Assembly: GCA_965207225.1 (NCBI GenBank)
Contig: CBDBLV010000002.1
Coordinates: 128,001 to 192,000 of the forward strand
DNA: 64,000 bases
Direction: 5' to 3'
DNA from: Dehalococcoidia bacterium
Lineage (GTDB): Bacteria > Chloroflexota > Dehalococcoidia > Plut-88900
Below the pieces are notes generated by a model, which did no database searches, was not told where the DNA came from, and saw nothing but the letters and a program-made list of their open reading frames with translations. Positions 11,982-52,714 of this stretch are shown here, piece by piece (positions within the stretch are counted from its first letter, which is position 1; each line of letters opens with the position of its first letter). A program made the translations under genes and the position numbers.

Positions 11982-12035
11982 CCGTGATGTTCTCTGGTTG
12001 TTTGATTATCGCAACTGTATAATGGCTTTGCAACA
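11982..12035 (+). promoter_or_regulatory. Sigma70-like promoter/operator, copy 1
   Basis: TATAAT at 12018 flanked by TCGCAAC and TTGCAAC; 27 bp identical to 18315-18341. Confidence 0.65.
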
Positions 12036-18302: not shown

Positions 18303-18356
18303 CCGTGACGCTAGCTGGTTGTTTGATTATCGCAACTGTATGATATGATTGCAACA
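18303..18356 (+). promoter_or_regulatory. Sigma70-like promoter/operator, copy 2
   Basis: CTGGTTGTTTGATTATCGCAACTGTATGAT..TTGCAACA, a near copy of 11982-12035. Confidence 0.65.
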
Positions 18357-22902: not shown

Positions 22903-24123
22903 CTCGCCCAGGAGGTCACCCGGGGGATGCGCGAGGCAGCGTCCAGGGGCTTCTGGGTCACCAGCAGGGTGCCCTACGGCTACCGCAAGCTGATGGTGCA
23001 GGACGGGGCCAAGAAGCGGCCCAGGCTGGACCCCGACGAGGACACGGCCCCAGCCGTCAGTCGCATCTTCGACATGGCCGAGGCCCGCAAGGGCATGCTG
23101 GACATCGCCAAGACCCTGAACGACGAGGGATTCGCCAGCCCCGCTGGAAGGCGCTGGTCGAAGACCGTGATCCACAACATGCTCAGAAACGAGGTCTACA
23201 CGGGCACGCTACTCTGGGGCGTCAGCGGCAAGGGCAAGGCCGAGCCGGTCCGGGTGGAGAACGCATTCCCGGGCATCATCTCCAAGGCCCAGTTCCGCCG
23301 CGTGAGCAGGCTCATGCGCTCCCGAGCACCGAAGAAGACGCACCCCCGCCGCGTGGGAAGCACCTACATGCTCAGCGGCCTCGTCAAGTGCAAAGCCTGC
23401 AACCGGGCATTCAGCGGACAGGAGGCCAAGAGCGGCCGGTTCTCCTACTACGTCTGCCAGTCGATCATGAAGCACGGCGCCGGGGCCTGCGACTCCCCCA
23501 GGATCAACGCCAGGCGCTTCGAGGAGATGGTCATTGGCAACATACGCTCCAACATCCTCACGGACAGCAACATCCGAGCCCTGGTGAAGGTCGTGGACGA
23601 GCGGATGGACGGGGTGGCCGCCGAGCAGCGCCAGCGGCTAGAGACTATCGAGGATGAGCTTGAGGACGTGAAGCGGAAGCTGGGTCGCATATGGCACTAC
23701 ATCGAGTCGACCGATACCGTCGAGATGGCGGACGCCTCGGACCGCATCCGGGAGCACAGGGACCGGCAGGCGCGCCTGGAGGCCGCCGCCTCCGAGGCCA
23801 GGGTGGTTCTCTCCGAGCGCAGGGAGTCCCTCGACGACGTGGAAACCATTGCAGCCTACGCCCAGGACATGAGCGAGTTCCTCAAAGAGAGCGAGCTCAC
23901 CGAGCGCAGGTCCTTCATCGAGACCTTCGTCAGGGAGATCGTCATCATGCCCGGAAAGGCTGTCGTCCGGTACACTGTCCCCATGCCGGACGACAGCCGG
24001 ATTCCTGGCGTTAGCGCCGAGGATATGGCGCTGAACGGCTCAGTTCTGTCTACCGTCAAGTCCGGCCCACCAGACTTGATAAAATCAAGAACCTTCCGGT
24101 TGGCCCTGGTACTGGACTTGTAG
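22903..24123 (+). pseudogene. Large serine recombinase lacking its N-terminal catalytic domain
   Basis: Starts abruptly at LAQEVTRGMREAASRGF, collinear with the full-length paralog at 40771; zinc ribbon CKAC..YYVC..C retained; no YARVS. Confidence 0.9.
24055..24093 (+). other. att junction between islands A and B (left end of island B)
   Basis: GTCAAGTCCGGCCCACCA (24055-24072) matches 42325-42342 at 17/18; 24073-24093 is the inverted copy (20/21) of 42312-42332. Confidence 0.85.
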
Positions 24124-24381
24124 GGCAATCCTACGGGCGAACCGCCTTGGGGAAGGCACCTCGGCGACGGGCGCACCCAGAGCCCTCTACGCGTACTCGC
24201 TATTCTCTGTTCGCCTTCCTCCACCCGATAGCTGGTGCGAGGCTCGCTCAACAGGTGAGTGAGGTCCGCCTTTTCCTAGTCGGGGCAGAGAGTGCCGAAG
24301 AGGACCGGTACATCTTAGACGGCCACCACTCCACCGACCAGTCGCTTCACGGCAACTTGGCGACCCTTGCCTGCCCATGTC

Positions 24382-24427
24382 TTGACTTTTGTAGCAGACT
24401 GCATCACACTGTCGCACAATTGCTACA
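24382..24427 (+). promoter_or_regulatory. Promoter with an inverted-repeat operator
   Basis: TTGACT at 24382; TGTAGCA (24390) and TGCTACA (24421) are inverted. Confidence 0.45.
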
Positions 24428-24448
24428 TACTGCTGCGAGTGTCCTGAA

Positions 24449-24655
24449 TTGGCCAGAAAGCGACGAACGGTTTCCTATCCCGAAGGGGTTACTCCTGACC
24501 TCGAAGAGTTGCTGAACCGACTTCGCGAGTGCAGGGACGGCCCATACTGGAACAGAAGCCTCAGTGACATCGGGGGAATGGTCCTGCTGAAAGGAGCTCA
24601 GTCGGAGCTAGAAAAATACGGTAACCAGGATCAACAAGGGGGGGCGGAGTCATGA
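24449..24655 (+). CDS. Small protein, possible ribbon-helix-helix-like regulator
   Basis: Basic strand-like N-terminus RKRRTVSY then two helices; ATGA-coupled to the MTase. Confidence 0.55.
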   Translation: MARKRRTVSYPEGVTPDLEELLNRLRECRDGPYWNRSLSDIGGMVLLKGAQSELEKYGNQDQQGGAES

Positions 24656-27177
24656 CCCTGACTCATGACCAGGTGCTGGAACGTCTAAAGCACGAGTTCC
24701 ATGGTCTCGGTTATGTCGGCGGGCTCCTGCAAGAAGACTATGCATTCGCGGATGTCCTAGCCTCCCACTATGCGGTAAAACGCATCCCACTCGCAGCATT
24801 CGTTCAAGAACCTCCCTCCTACCGAACCGCCTCGTTTGGTGTGGCCGTAGCCAACGGACGGTCTGGGATCGACTCCATCCTTGACCATCGCTCCTTAGGC
24901 GCTCCGCAGATTCTTGAGGTCAACGACGACCGAGTGCTCAGGTGGAAGGTCACAGGAAAGGGTAGGCCTATACTCTTGGATGAAGTAGGTGTGGATAGGC
25001 TCCATGGCTTCTTTACCCAGCACCGTGATGATTGGTCACCCCAACAAGTTCTGCGGGCCAAGTCCGCAGGGCCTGTGGCTACGCAACTCGACTTCCTTGA
25101 CCTAGACTTAATGCCGCTTCTTGACTACGAGGTGCGCACCAAACTTGATGTGCTCTTACGCGACACTGTAGCTTTGGCACGTAGGACATTCCAGAGAAAC
25201 TTGCCGTTCACAGAAAAGCACTATCCTCCGCTGTTCCGTCTGATCTTCAGACTGATTGCCGCTAAAGTGCTAGCAGATCGTCGCTATCAAGGGGACTGGG
25301 ATTTGGCTGATCCCACATCTGCGATAGAGGCTGTGGAGAACTTGTACTTCAGGGACGCAGCTCTGGAACCCGTTCTTCAGGATTATGAAACGCAACTTGC
25401 CGTTTGGCAGCGTATTAAGGAGACCTTCCATTTTCAAAATCTTTCGGTCGATTCTCTTGCCTACGTCTATGAGAATACTCTGGTAACCCAAGAGACTAGA
25501 AAACTGTTTGGGATACATAGTACTCCACCAGAAATCGCCGAGTACATTGTCAGAAGACTTCCGTTCGACAGCTTGGAGACCCATGAGCGCCGTGTCTTTG
25601 AACCCTTCTCTGGTCACTCAGTGTTTCTGGTGGCCGCGATGCAACGAATGCGTGAACTTCTGCCCGGGGAGATGAACTCTCGCCAGCGGCATGATTACTT
25701 TGTTGACATGCTCTCTGGGATCGAGATAGATGACTTTGCCAGAGAAGTCGCCAAACTATCTCTCATGCTAGCCGACTATCCCAATCCCGACGGGTGGAGG
25801 CTGTATGGTGGAGATGCCCTGAGGTCTCCACTATTTGAGCAAGAATTGGCGAAGGCCAACATCGTCCTATGCAACCCACCGTTTGAGATGTTCAGCGAGG
25901 ATGAAAGAGGTCGTTACGACAATCTGTTCTCATTCCGGAAGCCAGCGGAAATCCTAAGTCGTGTGCTTCAGAATCCCCCCGAACTCTTAGGTTTCGTCCT
26001 CCCACGAGTATTCCTGAAGGGGCAGGGATACAGGAAGCTGCGGTCTCAGCTTGGGAATACTTACGCCTCTGTCGAGCTACTGGCCTTGCCAGAGCGTGTC
26101 TTCAAACGCTCGCGTGCCGAGACCGTGTTGTTGCTCTCCTATGGGCGCGGCCAGGGGACCGTGCGCCTAAAGGCAGGGGAGGTATATGAAGGAGACCACA
26201 AGGGCTTCTACTCTATTCAACCGTCGTACGAATTCGAAGAACACGTAGAAGACGCAGGGAAGGTCTTTGGCCATGGCATGTGGCGCCCGCCTCTTCACGA
26301 TGTCTGGCGGGCGACGGCCAACTTGAAGCGCTTGAGCGACATTTCCTCCGTTCATCGTGGCATCGAATATAACTTACCCTTCGGCGGAAACGAATCACAA
26401 CTAGTATCCAATAGGGACTCACCCGGTTTTGTACCGGGAGTCCACAGGGTAAGGGGCACGGTAGAGCCATTTGCCGTTCTCAATACCGTTTTCCTCAACG
26501 CTTCCGTTGACTTCATGCGTGGGTCCGCTTACACACTTCCTTGGGACAAACCGAAGCTCATTGTAAACGCTAGTCGTCAGTCCGTAGGACATTGGAAGAT
26601 TACGGCTTCATTGGACAATGGAGGCCTCGTCTGTTATCAGAACTTTCATGGGGTTTGGCCGAACGACGGCACTCCTTTGGAAGTCCTGGCTGCCGTGCTC
26701 AATGGCCCTGTTGCTAACGCATTTGTGAGCACCCATGGGACTGGTCGGCATGTTACAGTTCAGTCCTTGAAGGGCATCCCAGTCCCCGAGCTTGGCCATA
26801 CACAGCAGCAGCACATATCGTCACTAGTCAAGCAATACTTGAATGCCCGTAGCCTTTGGCTAACTGAAGGGGTCGGTGCAGAGGAAGCACGCCAGCTATG
26901 CACGTGGCTTCTGAAGTCGATAGACGCCGAAGTACTAAGGGCCTACGATCTATCACCTCGCATAGAGCGTATGCTGTTGGATTACTTCGCTGGGCATTCC
27001 CGCCTTGGACCTGTCGAGTTCACGGAGTACTATCCTCGAGGCTTCGGTCCATACATTCCGTGGCACATTTACATTTCAGAGGAATTCAAGGAGGCCCAAG
27101 CCAAGAATACTCTAGACCGACTTCCTGTCATTCCAGCATCGACTATTATCAATGAAGCCCTTTCCTATGTGGAATAG
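24652..27177 (+). CDS. Large N6-adenine DNA methyltransferase with a C-terminal TRD-like region
   Basis: GIHSTPPEIA, variant motif I EPFSGHSVFL, GIEID, NPPF and AVLNGPVANAF. Confidence 0.85.
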   Translation: MTLTHDQVLERLKHEFHGLGYVGGLLQEDYAFADVLASHYAVKRIPLAAFVQEPPSYRTASFGVAVANGRSGIDSILDHRSLGAPQILEVNDDRVLRWKVTGKGRPILLDEVGVDRLHGFFTQHRDDWSPQQVLRAKSAGPVATQLDFLDLDLMPLLDYEVRTKLDVLLRDTVALARRTFQRNLPFTEKHYPPLFRLIFRLIAAKVLADRRYQGDWDLADPTSAIEAVENLYFRDAALEPVLQDYETQLAVWQRIKETFHFQNLSVDSLAYVYENTLVTQETRKLFGIHSTPPEIAEYIVRRLPFDSLETHERRVFEPFSGHSVFLVAAMQRMRELLPGEMNSRQRHDYFVDMLSGIEIDDFAREVAKLSLMLADYPNPDGWRLYGGDALRSPLFEQELAKANIVLCNPPFEMFSEDERGRYDNLFSFRKPAEILSRVLQNPPELLGFVLPRVFLKGQGYRKLRSQLGNTYASVELLALPERVFKRSRAETVLLLSYGRGQGTVRLKAGEVYEGDHKGFYSIQPSYEFEEHVEDAGKVFGHGMWRPPLHDVWRATANLKRLSDISSVHRGIEYNLPFGGNESQLVSNRDSPGFVPGVHRVRGTVEPFAVLNTVFLNASVDFMRGSAYTLPWDKPKLIVNASRQSVGHWKITASLDNGGLVCYQNFHGVWPNDGTPLEVLAAVLNGPVANAFVSTHGTGRHVTVQSLKGIPVPELGHTQQQHISSLVKQYLNARSLWLTEGVGAEEARQLCTWLLKSIDAEVLRAYDLSPRIERMLLDYFAGHSRLGPVEFTEYYPRGFGPYIPWHIYISEEFKEAQAKNTLDRLPVIPASTIINEALSYVE

Positions 27178-27190
27178 AAGTTGATGACTC

Positions 27191-27700
27191 ATGACAACGG
27201 AAGGCTATCTCTTAGATACAAACATCGCCAGTTGGGCCTGCCACGAGGGTAGTAAACTTCATGCCAGAGTAAGGGCAAGGGTGGATGGCCTCGGAGATGA
27301 TGTAGCGTTCATTTCAGCAGTTTCCTTAGCTGAAGTTGAATATGGTCTCAATCTTGTCCCCTCAGGCGTTCAAGAGCCAGCTAACTTCAGGCGTGCAATG
27401 GATATGTATCAGGTTCTGCCCATTGACCGCCATACGGCAGAAATCTACGGCAGCATACGAGCAGACCTCTTTAGGGCATACGCACCTAGAGACCGCCGGA
27501 ACAGATTCGCCTCCCGTTACGTAGAGGATCTGCGCGAGCGCACTTCAGGTAAAGAACTTGGTATTCAAGAGAATGACCTGTGGATCGTGAGCGTTGCCGT
27601 CGAGTACAACTTGATTTTCGTTACCGGAGATCGTGGCGGTGGCATGAAGAAGATCGTTGAGGTAGCAGACTACGCTCATCGGACACAGTATTGGAGCTAG
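27191..27700 (+). CDS. PIN-domain (VapC-like) ribonuclease
   Basis: YLLDTN, SLAEVEYG, ENDLWI and FVTGD acidic tetrad. Confidence 0.9.
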   Translation: MTTEGYLLDTNIASWACHEGSKLHARVRARVDGLGDDVAFISAVSLAEVEYGLNLVPSGVQEPANFRRAMDMYQVLPIDRHTAEIYGSIRADLFRAYAPRDRRNRFASRYVEDLRERTSGKELGIQENDLWIVSVAVEYNLIFVTGDRGGGMKKIVEVADYAHRTQYWS

Positions 27701-29230
27701 GTTGTATGAGAGCATTACCTAACCAAGCAGGCTTAGGGTTTCCTAGCCATTCGAACACAGGTCGACAGGGTTCATAGAGTAAGATGCCACGCCAGACGGA
27801 GCCGAACGCTAACAACGCCCTCGGCGATTTGCTACGAGGCATGATGCCGGGCTGTGAGGTCCGCTCTGAGAACACCCAGACCTTCATCGACCATCCGGGC
27901 CGCCATGCCGATGTGCTAATCGTCGCGCCGGGCCGCTCCCCGGTAGTCGTCGAGGCGGAGTTTGAGCCGGCTGCCGAGGTGGAGAGAGACGCCTCCGAAC
28001 GCTTGGGGCTTCGCGTGCAAGGGCAACCCCGAACGGTCGAGGCAGCCATAGCGCTGCGCTACCCGAAGGCTGTGGAGGACGCCTATAACGTGCGCCAGGC
28101 CCTCTCCGAAGCCCGTCTCTCTTATTACGTCCTGCATCAAGACGGCGGTCGGTTTCCTGAATCTGGATGGCTAGAAGGTTCTGCAACCGACTTGGCTGAC
28201 CTTGCCCGTCTGGTGTCCGTCCCCCAAAGAGCCGTGGAGCAGGCGGCGGACACACTTGAGCAAGGCATTGGGCAGGCCGCCAGCCGTTTGGAGGAAATGG
28301 CCAAGCTACGGCCCAACGTCACCCCTGTTATTGCCCGGCTGTTGGGAATGAGCGATGTTCCCCAGACCCGCCGCATGGCTTGCGCCATCATCGCCAACGC
28401 TATGGTCTTCCACCAGCGCATCGCGGGGATGCACCAAGAGGTGAAACCCCTGCGCCTGGTGTGCGGTCCCAATGTTGCGAACCCCCAAGGCGAGACGTTA
28501 GCGGCCTGGGACGAAATTCTGGAGATCAACTACTGGCCCATCTTTGCCATAGCCAAGGACATCTTGGAGCAGCTTCCCGGAGACGTTGCCACTAGCGCCA
28601 TGCGGGAGTTGCTGGAGACCGCCCAGGAAGTTGAAGCCACTGGCGTCGACAACGCCCACGACCTGACCGGGCGCATCTTCCAACGGCTGATCGCCGACCG
28701 GAAGTATCTGGCTACCTTCTACACCCTTCCAGCCTCGGCCGCGCTGTTGGCCCGGCTGGCTGTGGCAAAGATTGATGGGGTGGACTGGGCCGACGCCGAG
28801 GCCATCGGCAGACTCCGCATCGGGGATTTCGCCTGCGGTACCGGTGCCTTGCTGTCGGCGGTGTACGAGCAGGTTGCTTCCCACCACGAGCGAGCCGGGG
28901 GTGATTCCACGGCCCTGCATCCCGTGATGATCGAGGAAGTCCTGTACGGCTGCGACGTCATGCCCTCGGCCATTCACATCACCGGCTCCACCCTGTCCGG
29001 TATGCGGCCCAACGTGGGATTCAATCAGTCCCGTCTCTACACCATGCCCTATGGAAAGCAGAAGGACAGCACTGTGAAGATAGGTTCCCTGGAGTTGCTC
29101 CAAGCCTCCACGGCCTTGACCTTGTTCAATACCAGCGACCCAGCTCTGCGCACCGGCAGCGTGGGCGAGGAGACTGCTGCCCAGATTAACGTTGACATCC
29201 CGGATGCGAACTTTGATCTGGTGATAATGA

Positions 29231-31626
29231 ATTGAGTAGGAACGGCGCCGCCAATGACCGGATTTCGCCGACGGGTTTGCGCCATTCCTCTCACCGAACC
29301 GGACGTGCCTCTTTCAAGGCATCCGGCTCTCCATTAGACGGTTGGTTGTTGGCTTGGTTGGCTTTCGGCCTTATGGCACGTCCGGCAGAGCGTGACCAAG
29401 TCTTTGAGCGCGTGGGACTTCATGCCTTTGGTGTGGTGGACTTGGAGAGGACTCCGAGCGCCACACTGCTGGCATCTCATCTCGTCGCGCAACTTGGCCT
29501 TTAGTTTCCGTTCGGCGAGTGCGAGAGGTTCGCTGCGGCTACGTCTGCCGCTGCTTGCCCCGATGGTCGCCGTGTAGGTGCGCTCGTCTGGGCCGGTTTC
29601 TCCCTGTGGATGGTCGCTTGTTGCCTCTGCGTGGCCGGACAGGTAGGGATGCGGGAATCCCGCGGCCCCTTTCTGAAGGTAGCGTTGGCGGTCAAGCTCC
29701 TGTCGGGTGGGGAGCCATTGGTACGCTTCCAGCTTGTTATCGCCTTCGCGTTCCTCTGCGTACCAGCGGGTTCTGCCGTGGAGCCGCCTAGTCTTGGCTT
29801 TCATGAGTTGTCCCTTGTGGCTACCCTTATGCTTCTTTAGTAGCCAGTTGAGGTAGCGGAACCATGTGAACCGCGTGATGTCCTCAACGTCTTGCACAAG
29901 GCTGGTGTACCGATAGTATTCGGCCCAGCCCCGCACGATAGCGTTCAGGGTCGTCAGTCGGGTATACTCGTTCATCCAAGTCCAGTTCCTGGAAGTCAGG
30001 GCCTTGAGTTTCCGCTTCACGCGCTCCTTGGCCTTGGCCGTCGGTCGGAGATACACCGCCCACTTTCCTTCGGTCTTCTTGCGCTGGATGTGGAAACCCA
30101 GGAACTGGAAGCCGTCGTTGACGTGGGTGATGACAGTCTTTTCTTCCGATAGCGTTAGGTGGAGTTTGGTCTCCAGAAACCGTTGTATGGCCTGCTTGGT
30201 CGCTTTAACCTCGGCAATGGGGCCATTGCTGACGACCACGAAGTCGTCGGCGTAGCGCACCATTTTGTAATTGCCGAGACCGGCGTACCGTCTCCGGCGT
30301 CGAGCGTTCTGGTCGAGATCCCACTGCGCCGCCGCCCACTGGTCAAACTCGTTGAGGTAGACGTTGGCGAGCAGTGGGGAGATAACCCCTCCCTGTGGCA
30401 CACCGGATTCGGTGCGAGCGAAGAGGCCCTCTTCCATTACGCCCGATTTCAGGAATTTCCAGATTAAGTCCAGAAGCGCCCTGTCCTTCAACCGCCTCCG
30501 CAACAGCTTCATGAGTGTCCTATGATGGACGGTGTCGAAGTAGCTTTGGAGGTCGCCTTCAATCACGTAGTAGTGTTTCACGCTGGTGATGAACATGGGC
30601 ATAAGGACTGCGATAGCGTCCATCGTGCAACGACCTTTGCGGAAGCCGTAGGAGTGCGGATAGAAGTCCGACTCGTAAATCGGGTCGAGGATGGCCCGAA
30701 GTGCTTCCTGCACGATGCGGTCTCGCAGGGCGGGGATGCCCAGCGGGCGCTTCTTGCCATCGTGCTTGGGTATGTAAACTCGCCGGACGGGTTGTGGCTC
30801 GTACGTTTTGCGCTTCAGTTGGTTGATGAGGGCCGTCATTTGACCCTCGTAGTCCTTCTTGAACGCATCCCGTGTCTTGCCGTCCACGCCGTCGGTCTGG
30901 CTACCCGGTCGTGCAAGTACCCTTTCGGCCGCCGTGTGCATCCAGCAATCCCAGTGCAACAGGTCGTACAGGTTGGTGAACCTGTGGTCTGGATGCTCAT
31001 TGGCCGTCTTTGCCAAGAACCTTTGCTTTTCTGCCATCTTTGTCGGGTTCATACACCCCTCCTCTGGCGTAGTTTGCTTGTGTTCTGCACTCGTCTAATT
31101 GCCCTCCTTCGCCATGTGGCCGGCTTTCCCGACCTCGGACTACTACGAGGGCTCTGCCCCACTTTCGGCATTGGCCGCAAGCTAGCCGACCCCGTTGCCG
31201 GGGAGCCGAACGTGGTTCCCAAGTTCACGTAGGTTGTGTCTGCATTCCGCCTTAGGCTCTGCCTTTACGCCTGGCACGGCTCCTTGCCGCGCTCGCCATC
31301 GGGGGACGTCCGGTTGTACGGAGTGCGGCGTCCCTGTCCTAATGAACTTTCCCCGCAGTGGTTAGACGGGTATCCGATGACTCTGCCCTCGCCCTACCGT
31401 GGACGGACAGTCAGCGATTCGACGCTTCAACCAGCAGTTTCTTGTGTAGCCTTAACGGAACTCTGGCTAGGGGTGCACAGCTTGGTAGGGTCGCTGTCGC
31501 CCCGTTGTCGGGAAGGCTTCAAACACGGTTCTGCTTCGGGTCCCCGTGCCTGCTTCCGTAGCCACCGGCCCACTCCTGGCCGGGCTCCACATCTGGAACT
31601 CTCAACCTATGCGCTTCTTGGCGCAC
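29231..31626 (-). mobile_element. Group II intron, 2396 bp, antisense to its host gene
   Basis: 5' end GTGCG at 31626; domain V GAGAGCCGGATGCCTTGAAAGAGGCACGTCCGGTTC near 29297-29332; 3' end CCTACTCAAT at 29231. Confidence 0.95.
29334..31052 (-). CDS. ltrA: Group II intron reverse transcriptase/maturase with a C-terminal HNH-like domain
   Basis: RPLGIP..DRIVQ, PQGGVISPLLAN, YADD, FLGF, RGWAEYY and CQQC..VHH..LCRTCH. Confidence 0.97.
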   Translation of the reverse strand: MNPTKMAEKQRFLAKTANEHPDHRFTNLYDLLHWDCWMHTAAERVLARPGSQTDGVDGKTRDAFKKDYEGQMTALINQLKRKTYEPQPVRRVYIPKHDGKKRPLGIPALRDRIVQEALRAILDPIYESDFYPHSYGFRKGRCTMDAIAVLMPMFITSVKHYYVIEGDLQSYFDTVHHRTLMKLLRRRLKDRALLDLIWKFLKSGVMEEGLFARTESGVPQGGVISPLLANVYLNEFDQWAAAQWDLDQNARRRRRYAGLGNYKMVRYADDFVVVSNGPIAEVKATKQAIQRFLETKLHLTLSEEKTVITHVNDGFQFLGFHIQRKKTEGKWAVYLRPTAKAKERVKRKLKALTSRNWTWMNEYTRLTTLNAIVRGWAEYYRYTSLVQDVEDITRFTWFRYLNWLLKKHKGSHKGQLMKAKTRRLHGRTRWYAEEREGDNKLEAYQWLPTRQELDRQRYLQKGAAGFPHPYLSGHAEATSDHPQGETGPDERTYTATIGASSGRRSRSEPLALAERKLKAKLRDEMRCQQCGARSPLQVHHTKGMKSHALKDLVTLCRTCHKAESQPSQQPTV

Positions 31627-34545: not shown

Positions 34546-34600
34546 CCTAGCGTCAACTGCCTGTTGCGCCCATGTGTCCCGATTCTGCTAGTCTCGATGT

Positions 34601-36313
34601 ATGCCCCCCACCGAACGACAGCTACTCGACGCCCTCAGCCGGACGCCCTTCGTCGATTCGACGGAGCTGGCACTCATTCTCGGCGAGCCCCACACGACCG
34701 TCCACCGCACCCTGGCCAACTTGATGGCCGAAGGCATCGTGGGGAGAGTGAGCCACGGCACAGCCCACCTGCCGTCGAGCCAGAGGTACCACTTGACGGC
34801 CAGCGGCGTCGGCGAAGCCGCCTGGACGCTCGGCTTCGGCACGCCTTCAGACTATGTGCGAGCCTACCCCATGTCGAGGGAGTGGCTGACGCTGCTCATC
34901 CGCAGGATTGACTCAGTGGTCGGCGTCTACCGACTCGCCGCCTCGATGTCCCCAGGCATCGAAGGACTCCGAACCCGTGTGGAGTTCCACCGCAAAGGCC
35001 GCTTCGACGCCACCATCACGCTGCATGACGGCCGTGACTTCGGCGTGGTGCGCCAGGGCCTCGCCCTGCGGCGCCGGTCCCTCTACGACCGGCTGAGGGC
35101 CATAGCGGAGTACGACTACAGTCGCCGCCCCGACGTCGTTCTCATCCTCGTCCCCAGCGTGTGGGAGGAGAGGCTGACTACGAGGTTCTGCGAGGAACGG
35201 AACGTCCGTGACTGCTACGTTGCCGTGGAGTCCAGAGACGCCCTCGAAAGACGGGACCGCCGCCTCTGGTGCACAACCTCGTGGGTGATCGGAAGCAGCT
35301 TCTTCTCGCTGGAGCAGGTCATCTCCGAAGGACGCCCCGGGAGAAGGCCCTCCACCGAGTCGCCAGAGCGCAAGCGGGCTTCCATACCCCAGCCTGAGCG
35401 GATGGCGCAGGCTGCGCCGGCCTTCGGCATCAGCCCTTCGGAGAAGCGGACGCTGGACATCATCACCGACCACCCGATGATCCCCCGTGAGCACTTGGCC
35501 TTCTGGCTCGGTGTCTCCGAGGGACGAGTCAGCCAGATGATGCGCAGCCTCGTCGATACCTGGGGCCTGGTGGAGCGCCAGGGCAAACGCGGAGACACCC
35601 GCTACACCCTGTCCACCGAGGGCATTCGCTACGTAACCCACCGGGATCGTGCCCAGCTACCCACGACGCAGGGCATCTGGAGCACGGCCCGCACCACCGA
35701 CAAACAGGGCCGCAGGCGTCACATGGGACACCGCATCGAGACGTGGGCTAGGCAAACGAGGCACACCGACGGCATCACGTGGTTCCTCTCGAAGCTGGCA
35801 GCGGAGACCAGGGCCGACCCGAACAGCGAGCTTCTGTGGTCCGTCCCCACCGCCAGGTCAGACCGTGCCTACAACTGGGGCGATTCGGCCATTGCCCCCG
35901 ACGCCTTGGGGGAGTTGGTCACTGGCGGCATCCACATACCGTTCTACTTCGAGCACGAGCTGCGAGCCCGTCACCCCAGGGGCGTCATAGCCCGCCTGCG
36001 TCCCTACGAAAGCTACTACTGGGCACCTGAGCATAAGGACGACCAGCCGCCGTTTCCCACGACGCTCTTCGTCGTTGACACCCAGGAGGTCGAGGATACC
36101 TACGTGAATACTGCCACCCAGATGAGCCGGATGTCGCTGCCCATCCTCGTGTCCTGCATCCCCGTCCTGTCACGAACTGGAATACTAGGAAAGTCATGGC
36201 GTCCACTGTGGGAATCGGAGTCTCCGAGGCTGCCCCTGTCCGGGCTGAGCGCCTTCCGGTGGGATAGTCTCTACCACCGGATGCGCCAGAGTCCTGTAGG
36301 GGGGAATAGATAG
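34601..36313 (+). CDS. Winged-helix / replication-relaxation-like protein
   Basis: Two wHTH-like segments, each followed by a PD-(D/E)xK-like module; H..GITWF, PDALG and FEHE. Confidence 0.6.
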   Translation: MPPTERQLLDALSRTPFVDSTELALILGEPHTTVHRTLANLMAEGIVGRVSHGTAHLPSSQRYHLTASGVGEAAWTLGFGTPSDYVRAYPMSREWLTLLIRRIDSVVGVYRLAASMSPGIEGLRTRVEFHRKGRFDATITLHDGRDFGVVRQGLALRRRSLYDRLRAIAEYDYSRRPDVVLILVPSVWEERLTTRFCEERNVRDCYVAVESRDALERRDRRLWCTTSWVIGSSFFSLEQVISEGRPGRRPSTESPERKRASIPQPERMAQAAPAFGISPSEKRTLDIITDHPMIPREHLAFWLGVSEGRVSQMMRSLVDTWGLVERQGKRGDTRYTLSTEGIRYVTHRDRAQLPTTQGIWSTARTTDKQGRRRHMGHRIETWARQTRHTDGITWFLSKLAAETRADPNSELLWSVPTARSDRAYNWGDSAIAPDALGELVTGGIHIPFYFEHELRARHPRGVIARLRPYESYYWAPEHKDDQPPFPTTLFVVDTQEVEDTYVNTATQMSRMSLPILVSCIPVLSRTGILGKSWRPLWESESPRLPLSGLSAFRWDSLYHRMRQSPVGGNR

Positions 36314-36862
36314 CGACGATACATCGCTATCTGCCCTCTATGCTGTCTGGGGTGGACAAAAGGGAACATTTTGACCCGTCGGCGGGGTCTTGAGAGGCCG
36401 TAGACCGCCCGATTTGCCTCTGATTTAGCTACGAAACGGGCTGATTTCCCGCCTGACCGGTCAGCGACAGAAAATGCAAGTCAGTGGGAAGCCATGCTAA
36501 ACTGAATCGCCCCTTCCGAGACGGCAAAATTGCACTTTCGCACCCCTGACGTGTCAACCGGCTGGGAGGGAATTAGCTTTGGATGGACCTTCCCGGCGGG
36601 TCCGGGGTGTCGATGCGGGTGGGATTTGGGATGTCAGCGTCTGTGTTGGCCCAGTTTGGCCCATCGGTTTTGGCGGGAAACGATGGGGGGATGGGCGACA
36701 CGATTTTGGGGCGCGGGTAGAAACGGACATCCTGGGCCAACTCAGCTATGAAAACACACCGATTTCCTGGTACATCGGACAGTTCCAGTGAACACTTTGA
36801 CGAAAGGGCTGGTTCCACCGAAAAGTGGATGGAATTGCCAAAACGGGCCACCCCCGTAGAGG

Positions 36863-37333
36863 ATGGAAATGAGCGACGGACGGGCATCGAGGGACGACGA
36901 CCATCGGCCCGACCTGAAGTGGGTCGTGGAGTGGCTGGTCGCGCGGGAGGGACAGCGCAAGACTGCCGCCCTTCTGGGCGTGAACCGGAAGACGGTGGCG
37001 CTGGCCCTGCGCCGGGAGCGGCTGACGGGCAGGATGAACCTTGCCGTCCAGCGGCTCATGGCCAACCTGGACGATCCGGGGTGGGAGAAGACGACGCCGG
37101 TAGACAGGTTGGAGGCGAGGATACAGGTGGCGCTCGAAGTGGCGCACGAGCTGGCGGGGCTGGTGGAGAGTCTGACGCAGCGCGTCGCGGCCCTGGAGGC
37201 GGCACAGAGTCCCCAGTCCGACGCTGAAGGCCAGGAGCCGGCGGATGCGCCCGAGCCGGAGGGCCGGGGACTGCGCCTGTTCGACTGGGGGCGGAGGCGT
37301 CGGCCGCGGGGCGAGGAACAGAGCGATGAATGA
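36863..37333 (+). CDS. HTH/coiled-coil protein, shorter paralog of 1545..2423
   Basis: LVAREGQRKTAALLGVNRKTV versus VVRREGSRKGAARALGIDRRTV. Confidence 0.75.
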   Translation: MEMSDGRASRDDDHRPDLKWVVEWLVAREGQRKTAALLGVNRKTVALALRRERLTGRMNLAVQRLMANLDDPGWEKTTPVDRLEARIQVALEVAHELAGLVESLTQRVAALEAAQSPQSDAEGQEPADAPEPEGRGLRLFDWGRRRRPRGEEQSDE

Positions 37334-37769
37334 GCACACCCGCTGGGTGACGAAGGCGGAGGCTGTGCGGGAGATGGAGGTTTCCGTCTCAACCCTCGAC
37401 CGGATGATTCGCCGGGGAGAGATCGAGGTCCGCAGGGAGGGGCGCCGGGTGTACGTGCGGATGGAGGGGCCGGAGCGTGTGAACGACGACGAGCTGCTGC
37501 GCCGGGCTCTCGTTCGAGAGGACGAGCTTAGGCGGAGACTGTGGGAGCTAGATAGGCGAGCATCGAAGTTGGAGAGGGAGAGGGACGAGGCCGGGGACGC
37601 CGCGACCGCCAGCCGTCAGGCGTATGCGGAGATGGAGGAGGCGTACCAGAAGGAGCGCGCCGTACACGAGAGGACGAAGGAGAGGCTCATCGCGGCCCGC
37701 GTGACCGCCTTCGTGCTGTTGGCGCTGCTGATCGGCAGCGTTCTCGTGTGGTGGTTCGTGCTGAGGTAA
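37326..37769 (+). CDS. Excisionase-like HTH + coiled coil + C-terminal TM helix
   Basis: VTKAEAVREMEVSVSTLDRMIRRG; hydrophobic tail VTAFVLLALLIGSVLVWWF. Confidence 0.8.
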   Translation: MNEHTRWVTKAEAVREMEVSVSTLDRMIRRGEIEVRREGRRVYVRMEGPERVNDDELLRRALVREDELRRRLWELDRRASKLERERDEAGDAATASRQAYAEMEEAYQKERAVHERTKERLIAARVTAFVLLALLIGSVLVWWFVLR

Positions 37770-37850
37770 GGGCGGTGCTATGACCCTTCTATGAACAGTG
37801 CTCTATGCTCAGGACCAAATGGAGACCGAGGGTAGGAAGGAGAGCGAATC

Positions 37851-38648
37851 GTGAGCCTTCTCAGAGAGTGGCGCAAATGGGACCCTGAGGACTTCCCATA
37901 CGTATTGGACATGGATGCTGATGTCCTGGAGTCCCCTAGCTGGAAGCCCTCGGTCGCCAAGCACCGAAGTTGGCGGAAAGCAACCGGAGCCCCAGACTTC
38001 TGCAAGTCAGACGACAAGCGGCTCCACTTGGGCCTCATTCCAGTCCCATTTATGGGAGACATGCTGAACGCTTCCATTTACGTGCTGATGCTGAACCCAG
38101 GGCTCGGACCTGGTGACTACTTCGAGTACAAGGTCCCTAGCTTACGGCGGGCACTTATCGCCAACCTGCGGCAGGAGCACATACCCGGAGTCATGCCATT
38201 TGTGTGCTTAGACCCTCGATTCGCTTGGCATGGAGGGTTCGGCTATTGGGACCGAAAACTCAAGGCAATAATGGAGACTCTAGCTGCATCGAAAGGTATG
38301 TCCTTGGCCGATGCACGCTCAGAGCTAGGGAGCAAGCTGGCAGTTGTCCAGCTTGTTCCATATCACAGCTCCGGATTCAATCAGAAGGCGTTACAGGAGC
38401 TACCCTCGGTGCGTCTAGCGAAGGACTTCGTTCGGCGGACAGTTGATAGACGAGTAAGAGCCCAAGAAGCAATTGTCATCGCCACGCGACAGGTCAAGGT
38501 TTGGGATCAATACCTGTCGAATGACCTTGGCGAGGAACGCGGAATAGTTCGATACACGGCTTCAGAAGCGAGAGCGGCGTCGTTGAGTCCTGATTCGAGT
38601 GGAGGTCGCGCCATTCTCCACAAACTAGGCGTCACGGACAGATACTAG
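37851..38648 (+). CDS. Uracil-DNA-glycosylase-superfamily-like protein (Brig1-like)
   Basis: IPVPFMGD..IYVLMLNPG and QLVPYHS motifs; GGAAGGAG RBS region. Confidence 0.55.
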   Translation: MSLLREWRKWDPEDFPYVLDMDADVLESPSWKPSVAKHRSWRKATGAPDFCKSDDKRLHLGLIPVPFMGDMLNASIYVLMLNPGLGPGDYFEYKVPSLRRALIANLRQEHIPGVMPFVCLDPRFAWHGGFGYWDRKLKAIMETLAASKGMSLADARSELGSKLAVVQLVPYHSSGFNQKALQELPSVRLAKDFVRRTVDRRVRAQEAIVIATRQVKVWDQYLSNDLGEERGIVRYTASEARAASLSPDSSGGRAILHKLGVTDRY

Positions 38649-38703
38649 CCCGTGCAACTATAGCGAAGACCCCGAGGCATGTATGTGAACCGGACGAGCA
38701 ACA

Positions 38704-39453
38704 TCAGAAGTCCACGTAATCATAAACGCAGACCAACCTCTTCCCGTCAAGTTCGAGATCGTCGGCCCGGAAATCCTTGCCGTCTCGAACCAGGAGTTTA
38801 CTGCGGGCAGCTTCCATGAAGCTCTCATAGTCTCGAAGGTTCGACAAGCCCTTTCGGTCATCGTACATTGAAGTTCTGAAGACTAGGACGTAAAACACCG
38901 AGACTTCGCCCGGTGCGGCGACCGTCCCGGCGGTTCCTGTCAACAGCTGATACCGAACATCTGCGAACCGGGAAGTGTCCGGTGAACCGTGGTCCGAAAA
39001 ATACTTCGCCAACAGCCCCTTCACCCTCTCGGGCGCGTTGGTGTTCTTCCCGGCCGCCCGTTTCTTCATGGCCGACGAGTACCTGCTCCTCACCGTACTG
39101 GCAAACGTTTCGTCTACCTTGGCTTCTACCCCTACAAACAGACTTGTCCTCGGAGTCAACTCTTCCACATGGCCGGTGATTGCAAGATCCAGGTTGCTAG
39201 GGTTGCCCGGATAGGAGTCGAACTTCGCCAGATGCTCCGGCGTGGCCTGCTCTAACTTTACGTACCGTGACAGGACGGAAGACAAGCGCGTTTCCAGATA
39301 AGCCGCGCCCTTCCGGTCCATAATGAACTCGGCAAGGGAATAGGCACTCCGCCCCTTCTTCCAATCCTTCTCCTTCGACGTCCCATCGAAGATTCGACTT
39401 CGCCACTCACTTAGGTTCGATATTCGTTGGCCGCGGGAATCTACGATTCTCAT
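38704..39453 (-). CDS. DUF6946-like putative PD-(D/E)xK nuclease
   Basis: WKKGRSAYSLA, NLDL..VEAKVDETF and RYQLLTG. Confidence 0.7.
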   Translation of the reverse strand: MRIVDSRGQRISNLSEWRSRIFDGTSKEKDWKKGRSAYSLAEFIMDRKGAAYLETRLSSVLSRYVKLEQATPEHLAKFDSYPGNPSNLDLAITGHVEELTPRTSLFVGVEAKVDETFASTVRSRYSSAMKKRAAGKNTNAPERVKGLLAKYFSDHGSPDTSRFADVRYQLLTGTAGTVAAPGEVSVFYVLVFRTSMYDDRKGLSNLRDYESFMEAARSKLLVRDGKDFRADDLELDGKRLVCVYDYVDF

Positions 39454-39489
39454 GCCTTACACCTCGGACTTCATTCTACCTACTGCCTC

Positions 39490-39519
39490 TTGCGTCTCAG
39501 GTATCCTGTAGCCTACAAT
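39490..39519 (+). promoter_or_regulatory. TA promoter with a palindromic operator
   Basis: TTGCGT-N18-TACAAT overlapping TGTAG-C-CTACA (39507-39517). Confidence 0.55.
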
Positions 39520-39525
39520 GTGGTG

Positions 39526-39816
39526 ATGGTCGAGATTCGCCAGACCGAGGTTTACGCCCGTTGGTTCAGGCGGCTTCGGGACAGGCAGGCCAGAGTGAGA
39601 ATCGACAACCGCATCAGGCGGCTGTCCCTGGGCAACCCCGGAGACGTGAGGCCGGTGGGAGAGGGAGTGTCGGAGATTCGCATCGACTACGGACCCGGCT
39701 ACCGGGTGTACTTCTCGCAGAGCGGGGAAACCCTGGTCGTCCTTCTGGCCGGAGGCGACAAGGACAGCCAGGAGCGGGACATCCGAAGGGCGTTGGAGCT
39801 AGCCAGAGGACTCTAG
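39526..39816 (+). CDS. RelE/HigB-family toxin (addiction module killer protein)
   Basis: GNPGDVRPVGEGVSEIRIDYGPGYRVY..LLAGGDK. Confidence 0.93.
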   Translation: MVEIRQTEVYARWFRRLRDRQARVRIDNRIRRLSLGNPGDVRPVGEGVSEIRIDYGPGYRVYFSQSGETLVVLLAGGDKDSQERDIRRALELARGL

Positions 39817-39825
39817 GAGGCAGCT

Positions 39826-40134
39826 ATGGCAAAGACGCAGACGAGGCCGTGGGACCCGGCGGAGCACCTTGAAACCGAGGAGGACATGGCGGCATACCTG
39901 AATGTCGCCCTGGAAGAGGACGACCTGAGCCTCATCATGGCGACCCTCGGAGACATAGCCCGCGCCCGGAGAATGGCGCTGGTGGCGCAGGAGACGGGGC
40001 TAGGCAGGGAGAGCCTGTACAAGTCTCTGTCGGCCGACGGCAACCCGGAGTTCGCCACAGTCCTGAAGGTGGTGCGCGCCCTGGGACTCAGACTTCAGGC
40101 CGCCGCAGGGCCTGGAGCGAACGACGCCGCTTGA
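39826..40134 (+). CDS. HTH antitoxin (addiction module antidote protein)
   Basis: DPAEHL..YL, LGDIARA and GLGRESLYKSLS..GNPEF. Confidence 0.93.
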   Translation: MAKTQTRPWDPAEHLETEEDMAAYLNVALEEDDLSLIMATLGDIARARRMALVAQETGLGRESLYKSLSADGNPEFATVLKVVRALGLRLQAAAGPGANDAA

Positions 40135-40196
40135 GGGTGTCGCAGGACTGGACGACACGACCGAGACACAGACGAAGCCAACCAGAGAGGATCGGC

Positions 40197-40682
40197 ATGC
40201 TTGAACCCAGAAACCAAGCTATGGGGATAGAAAGAAGAACGATGATAAACCTGGACTTTGTTAAGGAGGTGTTTGACAACTCGCCCAACAAAGCCGATGC
40301 ACCAGTTCATATGGTTACCCAAATAGTCAACTCCCTGCTGGGCTTGCTGGTCCTTCCATATGAGAGAGGTTACGCACTTCTGGAGGACGACGAAGAGTTG
40401 AAGAAACTCTATTCCCAAGGGTGGCCAAAGTGGAACATAACCAAGCGTCCGCCAATGGAACCTCGGACTTTGGGTAAGTTAGCCTGGCATCTGCGGAACG
40501 CGGCCTCACACGGCAGCTATCATTTCTCATCAGATAGTCGCGACCCGTGTCAGGTAACTATTACGGTGACGGATAAACCGATGGGGAAGAACGCACGGAT
40601 AAACTGGCGCGCAAGCATCAGAGCCGATAATCTCTACATCTTTTGCCAACGTCTCAGCGATTACATGGACCCGGCTCTCTGA
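40197..40682 (+). CDS. HEPN-family nuclease (pEK499_p136-like)
   Basis: VTQIVNSLLGLLVLPYE and the RxxxxH motif HLRNAASH. Confidence 0.75.
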   Translation: MLEPRNQAMGIERRTMINLDFVKEVFDNSPNKADAPVHMVTQIVNSLLGLLVLPYERGYALLEDDEELKKLYSQGWPKWNITKRPPMEPRTLGKLAWHLRNAASHGSYHFSSDSRDPCQVTITVTDKPMGKNARINWRASIRADNLYIFCQRLSDYMDPAL

Positions 40683-40770
40683 TGCGAGAATGAAGGTTAG
40701 ATCAGAATGTGGCAGTTTCCCAGGACTCACAGGAAACGACGCCACAACTAGGAGACTCAAGGAGGACAGC

Positions 40771-42354
40771 ATGAAGAAGAAGCACCTACAGCCACTCACG
40801 CCGGCAGCCCTCTACGCCAGGGTGTCCAGTGACCGGCAGGACGTGGACCTGTCCGTGTCCGCACAGCTTCGGGCGCTCAAGGAGTACGCGAAGGCCAACG
40901 GCTACTCCGTGGCCCGGGAGTACGTGGACGAGGCCGAGAGCGGCCGCGTCGCCGACAGGCCCCAGTTCAGGGATATGATCGAGGAGGGCGGCAAGGCCAA
41001 GGCCCCCTTCGAGGTCATCTTGGTATGGAAATTCAGCCGCTTCACCAGGAAGCGGGAGCACGCCGTGGCGTTCAAGGCCCAGCTGCGGCGCAAGGGCATC
41101 CGCGTGGTGTCCATCACCGAGCAGGCCGAGGACAACGCCACCGGCAGGCTGCTTGAGGGCATCATCGAGTCCGTGGACGAATATTACAGCGAAAATCTTG
41201 CGCAGGAGGTCGTCCGTGGCATGAGGGAGGCCGCGTCCCGGGGCTTCTTCCTCGCATCCAACGCCCCCTTCGGCTACAGGAAGATCAAGGTGCAGGACGG
41301 CCCCAAGGAGCGCCCCTCGCTTGAGGTTGACCCGGCCACGGCTCCCGTGGTGAAGGAGATATTCGAGAAGTCCCTGCGAGGCAGCGGCCTCAAGGAGCTG
41401 TGCAAGGAGCTGAACGACCGGGGCATCACCAACAGGGGAAAGCGCTGGTACAAGGGAACGCTTCACTATGTCCTGAGAAACGAGGCGTACACCGGAACCG
41501 CCGTCTGGGGAAAGACCAGCAAGGACGGACAGGCCCCGAACCCGGTGAGAGTGGAGGGAGCCTGGCCCGCGCTGGTGTCGAGGGAGCTGTTCGAGGATGT
41601 TCAGCAGGCGATGAGTGAGCGCGCCCCGAAGGTGCAGAGGCCCGGTAGAGTGGGGAGCAAATACCTGCTGAGCGGGCTGCTCAGGTGCGGGGTGTGCGGC
41701 AGGCCCTATCGCGCCCAGGGAGCCAAGAGCGGCCAGTTCGCCTACTACATCTGCAGTACCCTCCATCTAGAGGGCGCTGGGACGTGCACCGCCGACTATC
41801 TGAACGCCCCGAAGCTGGAGACCTTCGTCGTGGAGAAGATCAGGGAGCGGATACTGAACGAGGAGACCATCGTGGCCCTGGTGCAGCTTGTGGCCGAAGA
41901 GATCGACGCCATGGCCGGAGAACTATCCGGAAGGCTGGAGGTCGTTGAGGCGGAGCTGTCCGACGTACGAAAGCGTCTTGAGAAGCTCTACGAGGCCATT
42001 GAGACGAGCGAGTTGACCCTTGAGGTCCTGTCGCCCCGCATCATGTCTCTGAGGCATCGTGAGGAACAGTTGGAGGCTACAAGGGACGACGCTGAGACCC
42101 AGCTTGAGCAGAGGCGAGTGGAGCTGCCCAACACCGATGAGATAGCCCGGTACGTGGCGGACTTCCGGGAGTTCCTGAAGGACGGGACGATACCGGAGAA
42201 GAAGGTGCTCATCCGCAACTTCGTTGAGGACATCGAGGTGGAAGGAGACGAGGCGACGCTGACGTACACGGTCCCCATGCCGAGCGACGGGGCGATGTCA
42301 GAATCGGCCTCGGTTCTTGATTTTGTCAAGTCCAGCCCACCACCCCTCCATTGA
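40771..42354 (+). CDS. Large serine recombinase (island integrase)
   Basis: YARVSS catalytic Ser, ESG...RPQF, SRFTR, PFGY, zinc ribbon and coiled coil; AGGAGG RBS. Confidence 0.97.
   Translation: MKKKHLQPLTPAALYARVSSDRQDVDLSVSAQLRALKEYAKANGYSVAREYVDEAESGRVADRPQFRDMIEEGGKAKAPFEVILVWKFSRFTRKREHAVAFKAQLRRKGIRVVSITEQAEDNATGRLLEGIIESVDEYYSENLAQEVVRGMREAASRGFFLASNAPFGYRKIKVQDGPKERPSLEVDPATAPVVKEIFEKSLRGSGLKELCKELNDRGITNRGKRWYKGTLHYVLRNEAYTGTAVWGKTSKDGQAPNPVRVEGAWPALVSRELFEDVQQAMSERAPKVQRPGRVGSKYLLSGLLRCGVCGRPYRAQGAKSGQFAYYICSTLHLEGAGTCTADYLNAPKLETFVVEKIRERILNEETIVALVQLVAEEIDAMAGELSGRLEVVEAELSDVRKRLEKLYEAIETSELTLEVLSPRIMSLRHREEQLEATRDDAETQLEQRRVELPNTDEIARYVADFREFLKDGTIPEKKVLIRNFVEDIEVEGDEATLTYTVPMPSDGAMSESASVLDFVKSSPPPLH
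42312..42342 (+). other. att junction at the right end of island B, inside the recombinase 3' end
   Basis: GGTTCTTGATTTTGTCAAGTC arm followed by the CAGCCCACCA core. Confidence 0.85.
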
Positions 42355-42380
42355 CACCCCCGCCCGACCCCAACTACACT
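42351..42380 (+). promoter_or_regulatory. Sigma70 promoter of sthA
   Basis: TTGACA-N18-TACACT; the -35 box contains the recombinase stop codon. Confidence 0.6.
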
Positions 42381-42417
42381 GCCTGTGCGTACCAGGTGGT
42401 TTACTCAAGGAGTTTTC

Positions 42418-52637: not shown

Positions 52638-52714
<77 letters not shown>

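Follow-up and report, generated by a model that had tools for sequence, protein, structure and literature searches.

An integrative island of Dehalococcoidia with its attachment site inside the serine integrase gene and a conserved integrase tail encoded at the opposite island end

The closest described counterparts of the element reported here are the ssrA islands of Dehalococcoides, in which the gene for the large serine recombinase (LSR) DsiB overlaps the attachment (att) site in the same manner and was proposed to be complete only on the circle (McMurdie et al. 2011, BMC Genomics 12:287; PMC3146451). A comparable arrangement is known from IntP/IntX of phage Mx8 (Tojo 1996 and Magrini 1999, as presented in PMC6070905; also named in PMC4383910), where attP lies inside the integrase coding sequence and integration gives the gene a new 3' end, which, according to that review, does not inactivate the integrase but changes its specificity (PMC6070905). 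Here we analyze a stretch of 64,000 nucleotides (hereafter, the window; positions 128,001 to 192,000 of contig CBDBLV010000002.1, assembly GCA_965207225.1, denoted C2:128001-192000) from a Dehalococcoidia bacterium with a genome of 4.03 Mb in 5 contigs. The window contains an integrative island of 18,270 bp (24073-42342, + strand), the right boundary of which is the point at 42342 where homology to sister islands stops, as the empty site in relatives confirms. The LSR gene of this island, P0001, runs through the right att site and ends in host DNA. Joining the island ends would extend the gene by 16 codons contributed by the left end, and the comparison of left ends across many genomes indicates that the encoded tail is under purifying selection.

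The likeness to the DsiB islands extends to a host of the same bacterial class, to a CcrB-like LSR of about 540 amino acids at the island edge, to a 3' end of the gene that overlaps the att repeat with the stop codon outside the island and C-termini that diverge (PMC3146451), and to tandem arrays downstream of the target gene, represented here by an array of 95,006 bp. The two systems differ in the target, which is ssrA (tmRNA) with a 20-bp direct repeat for DsiB and tRNA ends with CCACCA (tRNA-Lys) here, and the gene described here lies at the attR side in sense orientation. The six-gene module of the DsiB islands (including the small resolvase DsiA, a RecF-like protein, ParB and Mom) was not found at this locus: next to P0001 lie the genes for a toxin-antidote pair and a HEPN protein, and those next to a related (B-type) recombinase encode Replic_Relax and a TrwB-like protein. 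For DsiB, the tails are reported as divergent, with no mention of a conserved form on the circle; in the present islands, the circle form of the tail is conserved. Mx8 shares with this island the internal attP and the new 3' end acquired upon integration, but it is a phage with a tyrosine recombinase, whereas the catalytic domain here is of the serine type. The target of Mx8 is a tRNA gene. With regard to novelty, the overlap and the hypothesis of a tail exchanged by recombination, both put forward in a first-pass annotation of this DNA, were already in print for DsiB (PMC3146451) and Mx8 (PMC6070905). The arrangement as such is already known, and what appears to be new is the comparative evidence that the tail is under selection.

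The island is bounded by two inverted arms of 21 nt, the left (P') arm at 24073-24093 and the right (P) arm at 42312-42332, both given on the + strand, which are complementary at 20 of 21 positions (95%). With up to two mismatches allowed, the arm occurs exactly twice in the window and in none of 100 shuffles. At the two junctions lies a direct repeat of 18 nt, GTCAAGTCC[G/A]GCCCACCA, at 24055-24072 and 42325-42342 (two matches against 0.15 expected, a count reached by no shuffle), the last ten nucleotides of which are the attL spacer or core, CGGCCCACCA (24063-24072, + strand), and the attR spacer or core, CAGCCCACCA (42333-42342, + strand). The att site of the island comprises 52 bp, namely, the two 21-nt inverted arms and a 10-nt spacer ending in CCACCA; the spacer codes for S-P-P, with CCACCA serving both as the two proline codons of the gene and as the tRNA 3' end. 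The left half of the attL-type junction is an arm of the upstream element, AGTTCTGTCTACCGTCAAGTC (24042-24062, + strand), of the type found in the B-type recombinase genes of this genome. The sites at 24055 and 42325 are attL and attR of one discrete island. The right arm encodes VLDFVKS of P0001, and the left end of the island (24073-24123, + strand) holds 16 codons, DLIKSRTFRLALVLDL, and a TAG stop that come into frame with the integrase gene only once the island ends join; when the right end was read into the left end by a script, the frame was kept and the 16-residue tail resulted. Comparison of attL, attR, the empty site and the tRNA junctions confines the crossover to the shared CCACCA, positions to its left being excluded because of the G/A difference between the two core copies of the window. 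Arm symmetry points to the first CC as the crossover centre, which would be the crossover dinucleotide.

Two other readings of these repeats were rejected. The cores are direct repeats, and recombination between them should therefore excise the island rather than invert it, which leaves no place for an inversion switch. Nor do the arm and core amount to a tRNA-like 3' end: the gap from AAGT to CCA is 8 nt, compared with 13 for a T-arm, ARAGORN detects no tRNA there, and the end of tRNA-Val resembles the arm-core stretch only in the CCACCA core and 15 of 18 positions. In the island arms (24063-24093 and 42312-42342), the GGTTC/GAACC end lies 6 nt farther from the core than does GGTTC of the T-arm in the tRNA targets (tRNA junctions at loci L011-L084), and in one class of chromosomal tails, xx[TAN]RT, GAACC is two codons nearer the core. 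In serine integrases, a shifted zinc-ribbon motif tells attP from attB half-sites, and the offset between arm and T-arm GGTTC recalls this shift. In another sample (run X1), a different arm type precedes the left end of the island at window position 24064 in 5 contigs with a consensus agreement of 0.63, a weak signal given that the arm is multi-copy; these contigs would fit the same kind of end in another context.

P0001 (40690-42354, + strand) is an intact LSR gene with an open reading frame (ORF) of 554 amino acids, in which translation probably starts from the Met of residue 28 (about 40771), the point at which homologues begin. The protein contains a Resolvase catalytic domain (PF00239, E 1e-31, residues 39-185), followed by Recombinase (PF07508, E 2e-25) and the zinc ribbon Zn_ribbon_recom (PF13408, E 5e-15), as well as the sequence YARVSS, which we take to be the catalytic serine motif. 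On the strength of this domain content and of the att sites, P0001 is assigned to the LSR, or serine integrase, class; its best NCBIfam resemblance is to CcrB, at 170 bits, far under the cut-off of 900. P0001 ends in ..VLDFVKSSPPPLH*, and its final three codons and stop (42343-42354) are host DNA, so that the gene spans the right junction. The left junction is likewise spanned by a gene, P0002 (22927-24123, + strand), a 5'-truncated LSR remnant of the neighboring upstream island that retains the Recombinase and zinc ribbon domains, lacks the Resolvase domain and is 44% identical to P0001. P0002 ends in ..VLSTVKSGPPDLIKSRTFRLALVLDL (..VKSGPPDLIKSRTFRLALVLDL), that is, in ..VKSGPP followed by DLIKSRTFRLALVLDL*, and its 16 terminal codons and stop (24073-24123) come from the left end of the island.

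The host flank to the right of 42342 was found in all 8 other genomes of the same genus that were searched. Two of these, G006 and G008, have an empty site, with a tRNA-Lys(CTT) gene ending in ..GGCCCACCA directly before the flank, and in G006 the base after the tRNA is the homologue of window position 42343. The PLH* end of P0001 is the old tRNA-Lys flank. An identical tRNA-Lys gene of 77 nt is located at C2:75260-75336, 95,006 bp upstream in this genome, where it is followed by a reverse-complement arm and the gene of another LSR. Because the tRNA-Lys gene and its original flank are separated, with the tRNA abutting another LSR island, C2:75337-170342 (95,006 bp) is a tandem island array at the tRNA-Lys end. 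The array holds at least 7 recombinase genes or remnants; window positions 1-42342 are its right part, with the island as the last unit. In another genome of the genus (G009, locus L091), a further element, ending in ..CCCCACCA, stands before the tRNA-Lys flank, which shows that relatives differ in the island that occupies this site.

The genome contains 41 matches to P0001. Thirteen of these belong to the A type (85-100% identity); 12 are nearly complete in length and one is without the N-terminal part. There are also three short fragments at 64-85% and about 20 matches at 45-56%. A scan for the core showed that every A-type gene ends in the same arm and core, followed by unrelated DNA. The left-arm motif has 13 copies outside recombinase genes, 11 of which pair with the end of an A-type gene on the same strand 11-51 kb downstream, with no other left end between. 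The sizes of the resulting 11 islands are 18,270 (the island in the window), 13,327, 17,008, 18,917, 19,153, 51,502, 20,596, 15,618, 17,630, 17,326 and 10,967 bp. The recombinase gene is common to all 10 sister islands at about 85-90% identity, and the homology ends exactly at 42342; in the backbone at about 34.5-37.8 kb, each 600-nt bin has matches in about 4-8 of the 10, and the left halves differ among the 11 islands. The approximately 20 LSR genes at 45-56% identity are the B type and its relatives, ending in ..VLSTVKSGG. Seven of these converge on tRNA genes (Ile, Ala, Lys, Val at two loci, Met and Gln), their ORFs continuing into the antisense of the tRNA, and seven further genes converge on the end of an A-type gene. 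The description of the locus in the first-pass annotation stands up to these comparisons: its factual statements on the inverted repeat, core, ORF ends and frame are all correct, the end of the P0002 ORF is indeed coded by the left end of the island, which it had described as a donated tail, and the placement of the att site within the last codons of the integrase is borne out by the empty site in two genomes of the genus and by the 11 like-ended islands.

The left-arm motif was scanned for in one genome per species, which yielded at least 74 loci, all in Dehalococcoidia or Chloroflexota assemblies. Together with 12 ends of this genome, the tail sample comprises at least 86 ends, 83 of them unique, and the counts given here refer to the ends listed. 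The first 24 nt of each left end (DL[ITM]KSRTF) are fixed by the search pattern and the palindrome, whereas the next eight residues are free. A stop at codon 17 after CCACCA is present in 75 of the 86 ends (72 of the 83 unique ones), and the consensus of the tail is DL[ITM]KSRTF-x-L-x-F-x-L-x-[LV], which corresponds to one arm and nine further codons. Among the 72 unique tails, residues 10, 12, 14 and 16 are L/I/V/M/F in 72, 72, 72 and 70 cases, respectively, and hydrophobic residues stand at positions 9, 11, 13 and 15 in only 5, 0, 13 and 6. The stop codon is TAG in 49, TAA in 19 and TGA in 4 of these tails, leucine at position 10 or 14 is encoded by 5-10 different codons, and the per-base entropy is lowest at second codon positions and reaches about 1.9-2.0 bits at every position just past the stop. 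This pattern has the signature of a translated, selected peptide of alternating polarity, amphipathic and beta-strand-like, rather than of a DNA signal, and purifying selection on the tail is indicated by the maintenance of the stop position and of the hydrophobic alternation. The suggestion that the in-frame tail is a protein feature was thus upheld, with frame and length both conserved in 75 of the 86 left ends. The same feature recurs at the far end of B-type islands, where 12 of 16 unique ends give a peptide of 15-16 residues, xLT[VI][GD]RT[IV]FE[LM]W[LM]G(x)L*.

Chromosomal copies of the recombinase present a different picture. The database comparison listed 120 homologues, 86-93% identical save one fused match of 835 amino acids at 74%, and the counts in this paragraph refer to these. 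The VLDFV motif is present in 117 of the 120, in 111 of those 117 as ..VLDFVxxxPP, after which the sequences diverge into unrelated tails of 0-344 residues. Among the 117, the tail is the end of another island type in 35, the antisense of a convergent B-type gene in 32, a short xx[TAN]RT peptide in 20, an A'-type tail in 7 and 0-3 residues long in 3, with 20 others. The statement that, in tandem arrays, each integrase gets its tail from the next island was too broad: most chromosomal copies run on into one of three things, namely, the antisense of a convergent recombinase gene, the end of another island or host DNA. Among 401 genomes of the class, only one has an intact arm-core-arm site; a further, natural case is the ORF P0123 of genome G001, which ends in ..VLDFVKSGPPDLTKSRTFTLRFRLAL*. 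Because intact sites are so rare in chromosomes, selection on the tail must act mostly when the ends are joined, that is, on the circle.

The sampled left ends also bear on the target. Complete tRNA genes (Ala, Glu, Ile, Leu, Lys, Met, Val) are directly abutted by 14 of the 86 listed ends, and the remaining ones abut B-like arms (24), a fourth arm type (10), an A-type gene (1) or other sequence (37); CCACCA precedes 80 of the 86. Distant homologues (30-50% identity) frequently have terminal peptides of the kind that antisense tRNA encodes, and the overlap of the gene with a tRNA-end target is therefore a clade trait. In this genome, no recombinase match adjoins the tmRNA gene (C1:198772-199125). 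According to the 2014 Islander paper (PMC4383910), serine integrases were not known to target tRNA genes, and a literature search, with many journals outside its reach, found no later statement to the contrary. Our comparisons reveal a clade of serine recombinases that integrates at tRNA 3' ends.

In an AlphaFold2 model of the close homologue P0123, based on an alignment of 85 diverse rows (mean predicted local distance difference test score, pLDDT, 88.5), the confident fold ends near residue 502, and helices 364-409 and 414-445 form a long coiled-coil insert of high pLDDT between the strands of the zinc ribbon. The model places the att site in a flexible C-terminal extension, and it is this flexibility that would allow a DNA site to live inside the gene.

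The LSR gene runs through the att site such that only the circle would join the 16-residue tail to it. When the island enters a tRNA gene at its CCACCA terminus, or uses the core carried by a resident sister island, the gene would be severed after the prolines, and the chromosomal copy would then end in the adjoining DNA, here in PLH* from the tRNA-Lys flank. The tail-bearing protein would be the form made by the circle and would act at integration, which, in turn, would change the enzyme, as happens in Mx8 (IntP/IntX) and as has been suggested for DsiB. Taken as a whole, an integrative island with the att site in the LSR gene, a selected tail produced only by the circle and an enzyme altered by integration is the explanation that we consider best and, with due reserve, probable. 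It builds on the island boundaries, the empty site, the target, the reading frame, the purifying selection on the tail and the arbitrary tails of chromosomal copies, all of which sequence comparison demonstrates. As to the effect of integration, we rank highest the possibility that, without the tail, activity or stability is reduced or otherwise changed, which would hold the element in place after a single integration, in keeping with the IntP/IntX logic. Next comes the possibility that the hydrophobic end L-[AED]-[LV] marks the circle-encoded enzyme for degradation, which would make it short-lived; the likeness to the genome's own tmRNA tag (..LALAA) is suggestive only. The third possibility is that the tail serves the enzyme in some way and its loss has no regulatory meaning. 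More tentatively, the tail might be a state sensor: only the circle would make the tail-bearing enzyme and integration would delete the tail, an att-encoded control of directionality beside or instead of a directionality factor, with the tail setting integration competence or lifetime as an in-trans beta-strand, as a C-terminal degron or through autoinhibition or oligomerisation, and with the clade using generic CCACCA tRNA ends and the ends of each other's islands.

Several observations weigh against a selected tail with such a role. None of the 15 listed joints (of 63, in short assembled contigs from four runs, 23500-42900) links 42342 to 24073, which by itself speaks neither for nor against a circle, and the intact arm-core-arm site has no matches in metagenome contigs or in viral contigs. 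The left-end motif alone also had no matches in the viral contigs, and no sign of a phage-like form was seen in those collections. In the AlphaFold2 model, residues 503-537, which make up the whole arm-core-tail stretch, have pLDDT below 50 and form a coil with no sign of tail docking, and the monomer model lends no support to the idea of a fold-completing strand. Chromosomal copies with arbitrary tails are mostly intact genes, which fits a dispensable tail; among the 7 listed A'-type tails, 3 are still 16 residues long and have S and P in place of two of the four hydrophobic residues, a further 3 are divergent and the last is too short for a verdict. Of the unique listed left ends, 11 of 83 lack the 16-codon frame. 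Many of the sampled genomes are related assemblies, and the 86 ends are not independent. Finally, the ratio of nonsynonymous to synonymous variation (pN/pS) over the eight free codons is 0.64 in frame, not clearly below the 0.58 in frame +1 (from fewer pairs), with 2.07 in frame +2 and 0.95 past the stop; this measure is too blunt here because every second tail residue is free to vary.

Part of this evidence suits another explanation, which accepts the structure and takes the tail for the natural end of the gene but gives it no switching role: the integrated enzyme would work equally well with a foreign tail or none, and the exchange would be a by-product of an att site located in a disordered extension. 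Thus, the confident fold stops about 35 residues before the C-terminus and the arm-core-arm region is modeled as coil, the chromosomal copies with tails of 0-344 residues stay open reading frames, and McMurdie et al. also list a 'trivial explanation' of variable C-termini (PMC3146451). However, a functionless peptide would not be expected to keep its length, stop and hydrophobic alternation in 72 of the 83 unique listed ends, with random DNA past the stop. Because the tail is kept across ends, some function is selected in the tail-bearing form, which the integrated form lacks by construction, and we regard the explanation without a switch as somewhat unlikely. Conservation next to the left arm could alternatively reflect a DNA signal, such as an accessory site bound by the recombinase or by a directionality factor, or a pair of 12-nt direct repeats, given that the nine codons read roughly as two copies of TTC-NNN-YTG-NNN and that the region directly adjoins the recombinase-binding arm. 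What is conserved in the listed ends, however, is the second codon base (T), with the first and third free, such that L, I, V, M and F interchange; TAG, TAA and TGA replace each other at one position, Leu is reached via 5-10 codons, and in at least one copy of this genome a stop interrupts the matching reverse frame, all of which makes a DNA signal improbable. The possibility that the inverted repeat is a family-level repeat only, and 24073-42342 not one mobile unit, was prompted by the 13 near-copies of the recombinase gene, the many arm copies and the 41 recombinase matches. It is hardly credible in the face of eleven left-right pairs with one backbone and different cargo, a right junction that coincides, base for base, with the empty tRNA-Lys site in relatives, and listed left ends that elsewhere abut 14 different complete tRNA genes.

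With respect to gene content, the island is integrative and probably mobilizable, with a backbone of a relaxase-like protein, an HTH_17 protein and the LSR and with defense genes as cargo. Its left part encodes, on the + strand, an MmeI-like N6 DNA methyltransferase-like protein (24652-27177) and a PIN-domain protein (27191-27700), followed, on the - strand, by a group II intron reverse transcriptase/maturase with an HNH domain (29334-31052). The remaining annotated genes, all on the + strand, encode the Shedu defense protein SduA (33112-34545; PF14082; PADLOC SduA E 6e-143), the backbone proteins Replic_Relax, a relaxase-like protein with helix-turn-helix (HTH)/MarR domains (34601-36313), and HTH_17, of the excisionase family (37245-37769; E 8e-5, under the Pfam cut-off), which might be a directionality factor or regulator, and an addiction or defense module of a Gp49-like toxin, an HI1420-type antidote and a HEPN protein (39427-40682). 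To the right of the island, the original DNA downstream of tRNA-Lys(CTT) (42343-43848, + strand) includes a pyridine-nucleotide disulfide oxidoreductase gene (42385-43848). The bins at 30.6-31.3 kb, in the region of the group II intron, have a high summed contig depth, as expected of a multi-copy element, contig depth not being equivalent to copy number. The B-type island next to tRNA-Lys (L102, C2:75200-84000) encodes Replic_Relax and a TrwB-like coupling protein beside the recombinase, a gene content that suggests conjugative mobilisation. Elsewhere in the window, two units about 1.1 kb apart (51176-51255 and 52286-52376), just upstream of tRNA-Pro (52638-52714), each consist of a 23-nt hairpin (100% and 91% complementary, respectively) and a repeat of 35-47 nt, and a 54-nt direct repeat, AT-rich and promoter-like (..TTGATTATCGCAACTGTATAAT..), occurs at 11982-12035 and 18303-18356, 6.3 kb apart, with 83% identity.

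Beyond DsiB and Mx8, three further systems invite comparison. In the integration-dependent immunity of mycobacteriophage BPs and its relatives, attP lies within the repressor gene, which therefore yields products with different C-termini in virus and prophage, and the longer viral repressor carries an ssrA-like degradation tag; the integrase, too, has a C-terminal feature (PMC4557955). There, the split gene is that of the repressor and the integrase is of the tyrosine type, whereas here the integrase itself is crossed by the site and no repressor logic was seen. The integrase ORF of SSV-type archaeal integrases extends across attP (PMC4383910). These integrases differ in being tyrosine recombinases of archaeal viruses. 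Upon SSV integration, the gene is cut into two parts and no short tail is exchanged. CcrB and CcrC of SCCmec are, like P0001, LSRs of islands that stack in tandem at one chromosomal site, the difference being the ccrAB pair there and the single recombinase gene here. The SCC target is the end of rlmH, not a tRNA gene. A literature search, with subscription journals outside its scope, found no serine integrase with attP overlapping its own gene beyond the DsiB paper.

Serine integrases are widely used in genome engineering, and their directionality is normally ascribed to a coiled-coil motif and a separate directionality factor. If the proposal holds, integration that rewrites the enzyme's own C-terminus would amount to a control layer encoded in the att site. 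A circle-only gene was proposed for serine integrases in 2011, with no evidence since, as far as the literature search shows, and the comparative result, a circle tail that is kept and chromosomal tails that are arbitrary, makes this question directly testable. The same clade of recombinases stacks defense-carrying islands into long arrays. If the tail is a state sensor and the clade does use generic CCACCA ends and the ends of its own islands as targets, this would explain the arrays of about 95 kb and the 41 recombinase matches in a 4-Mb genome.

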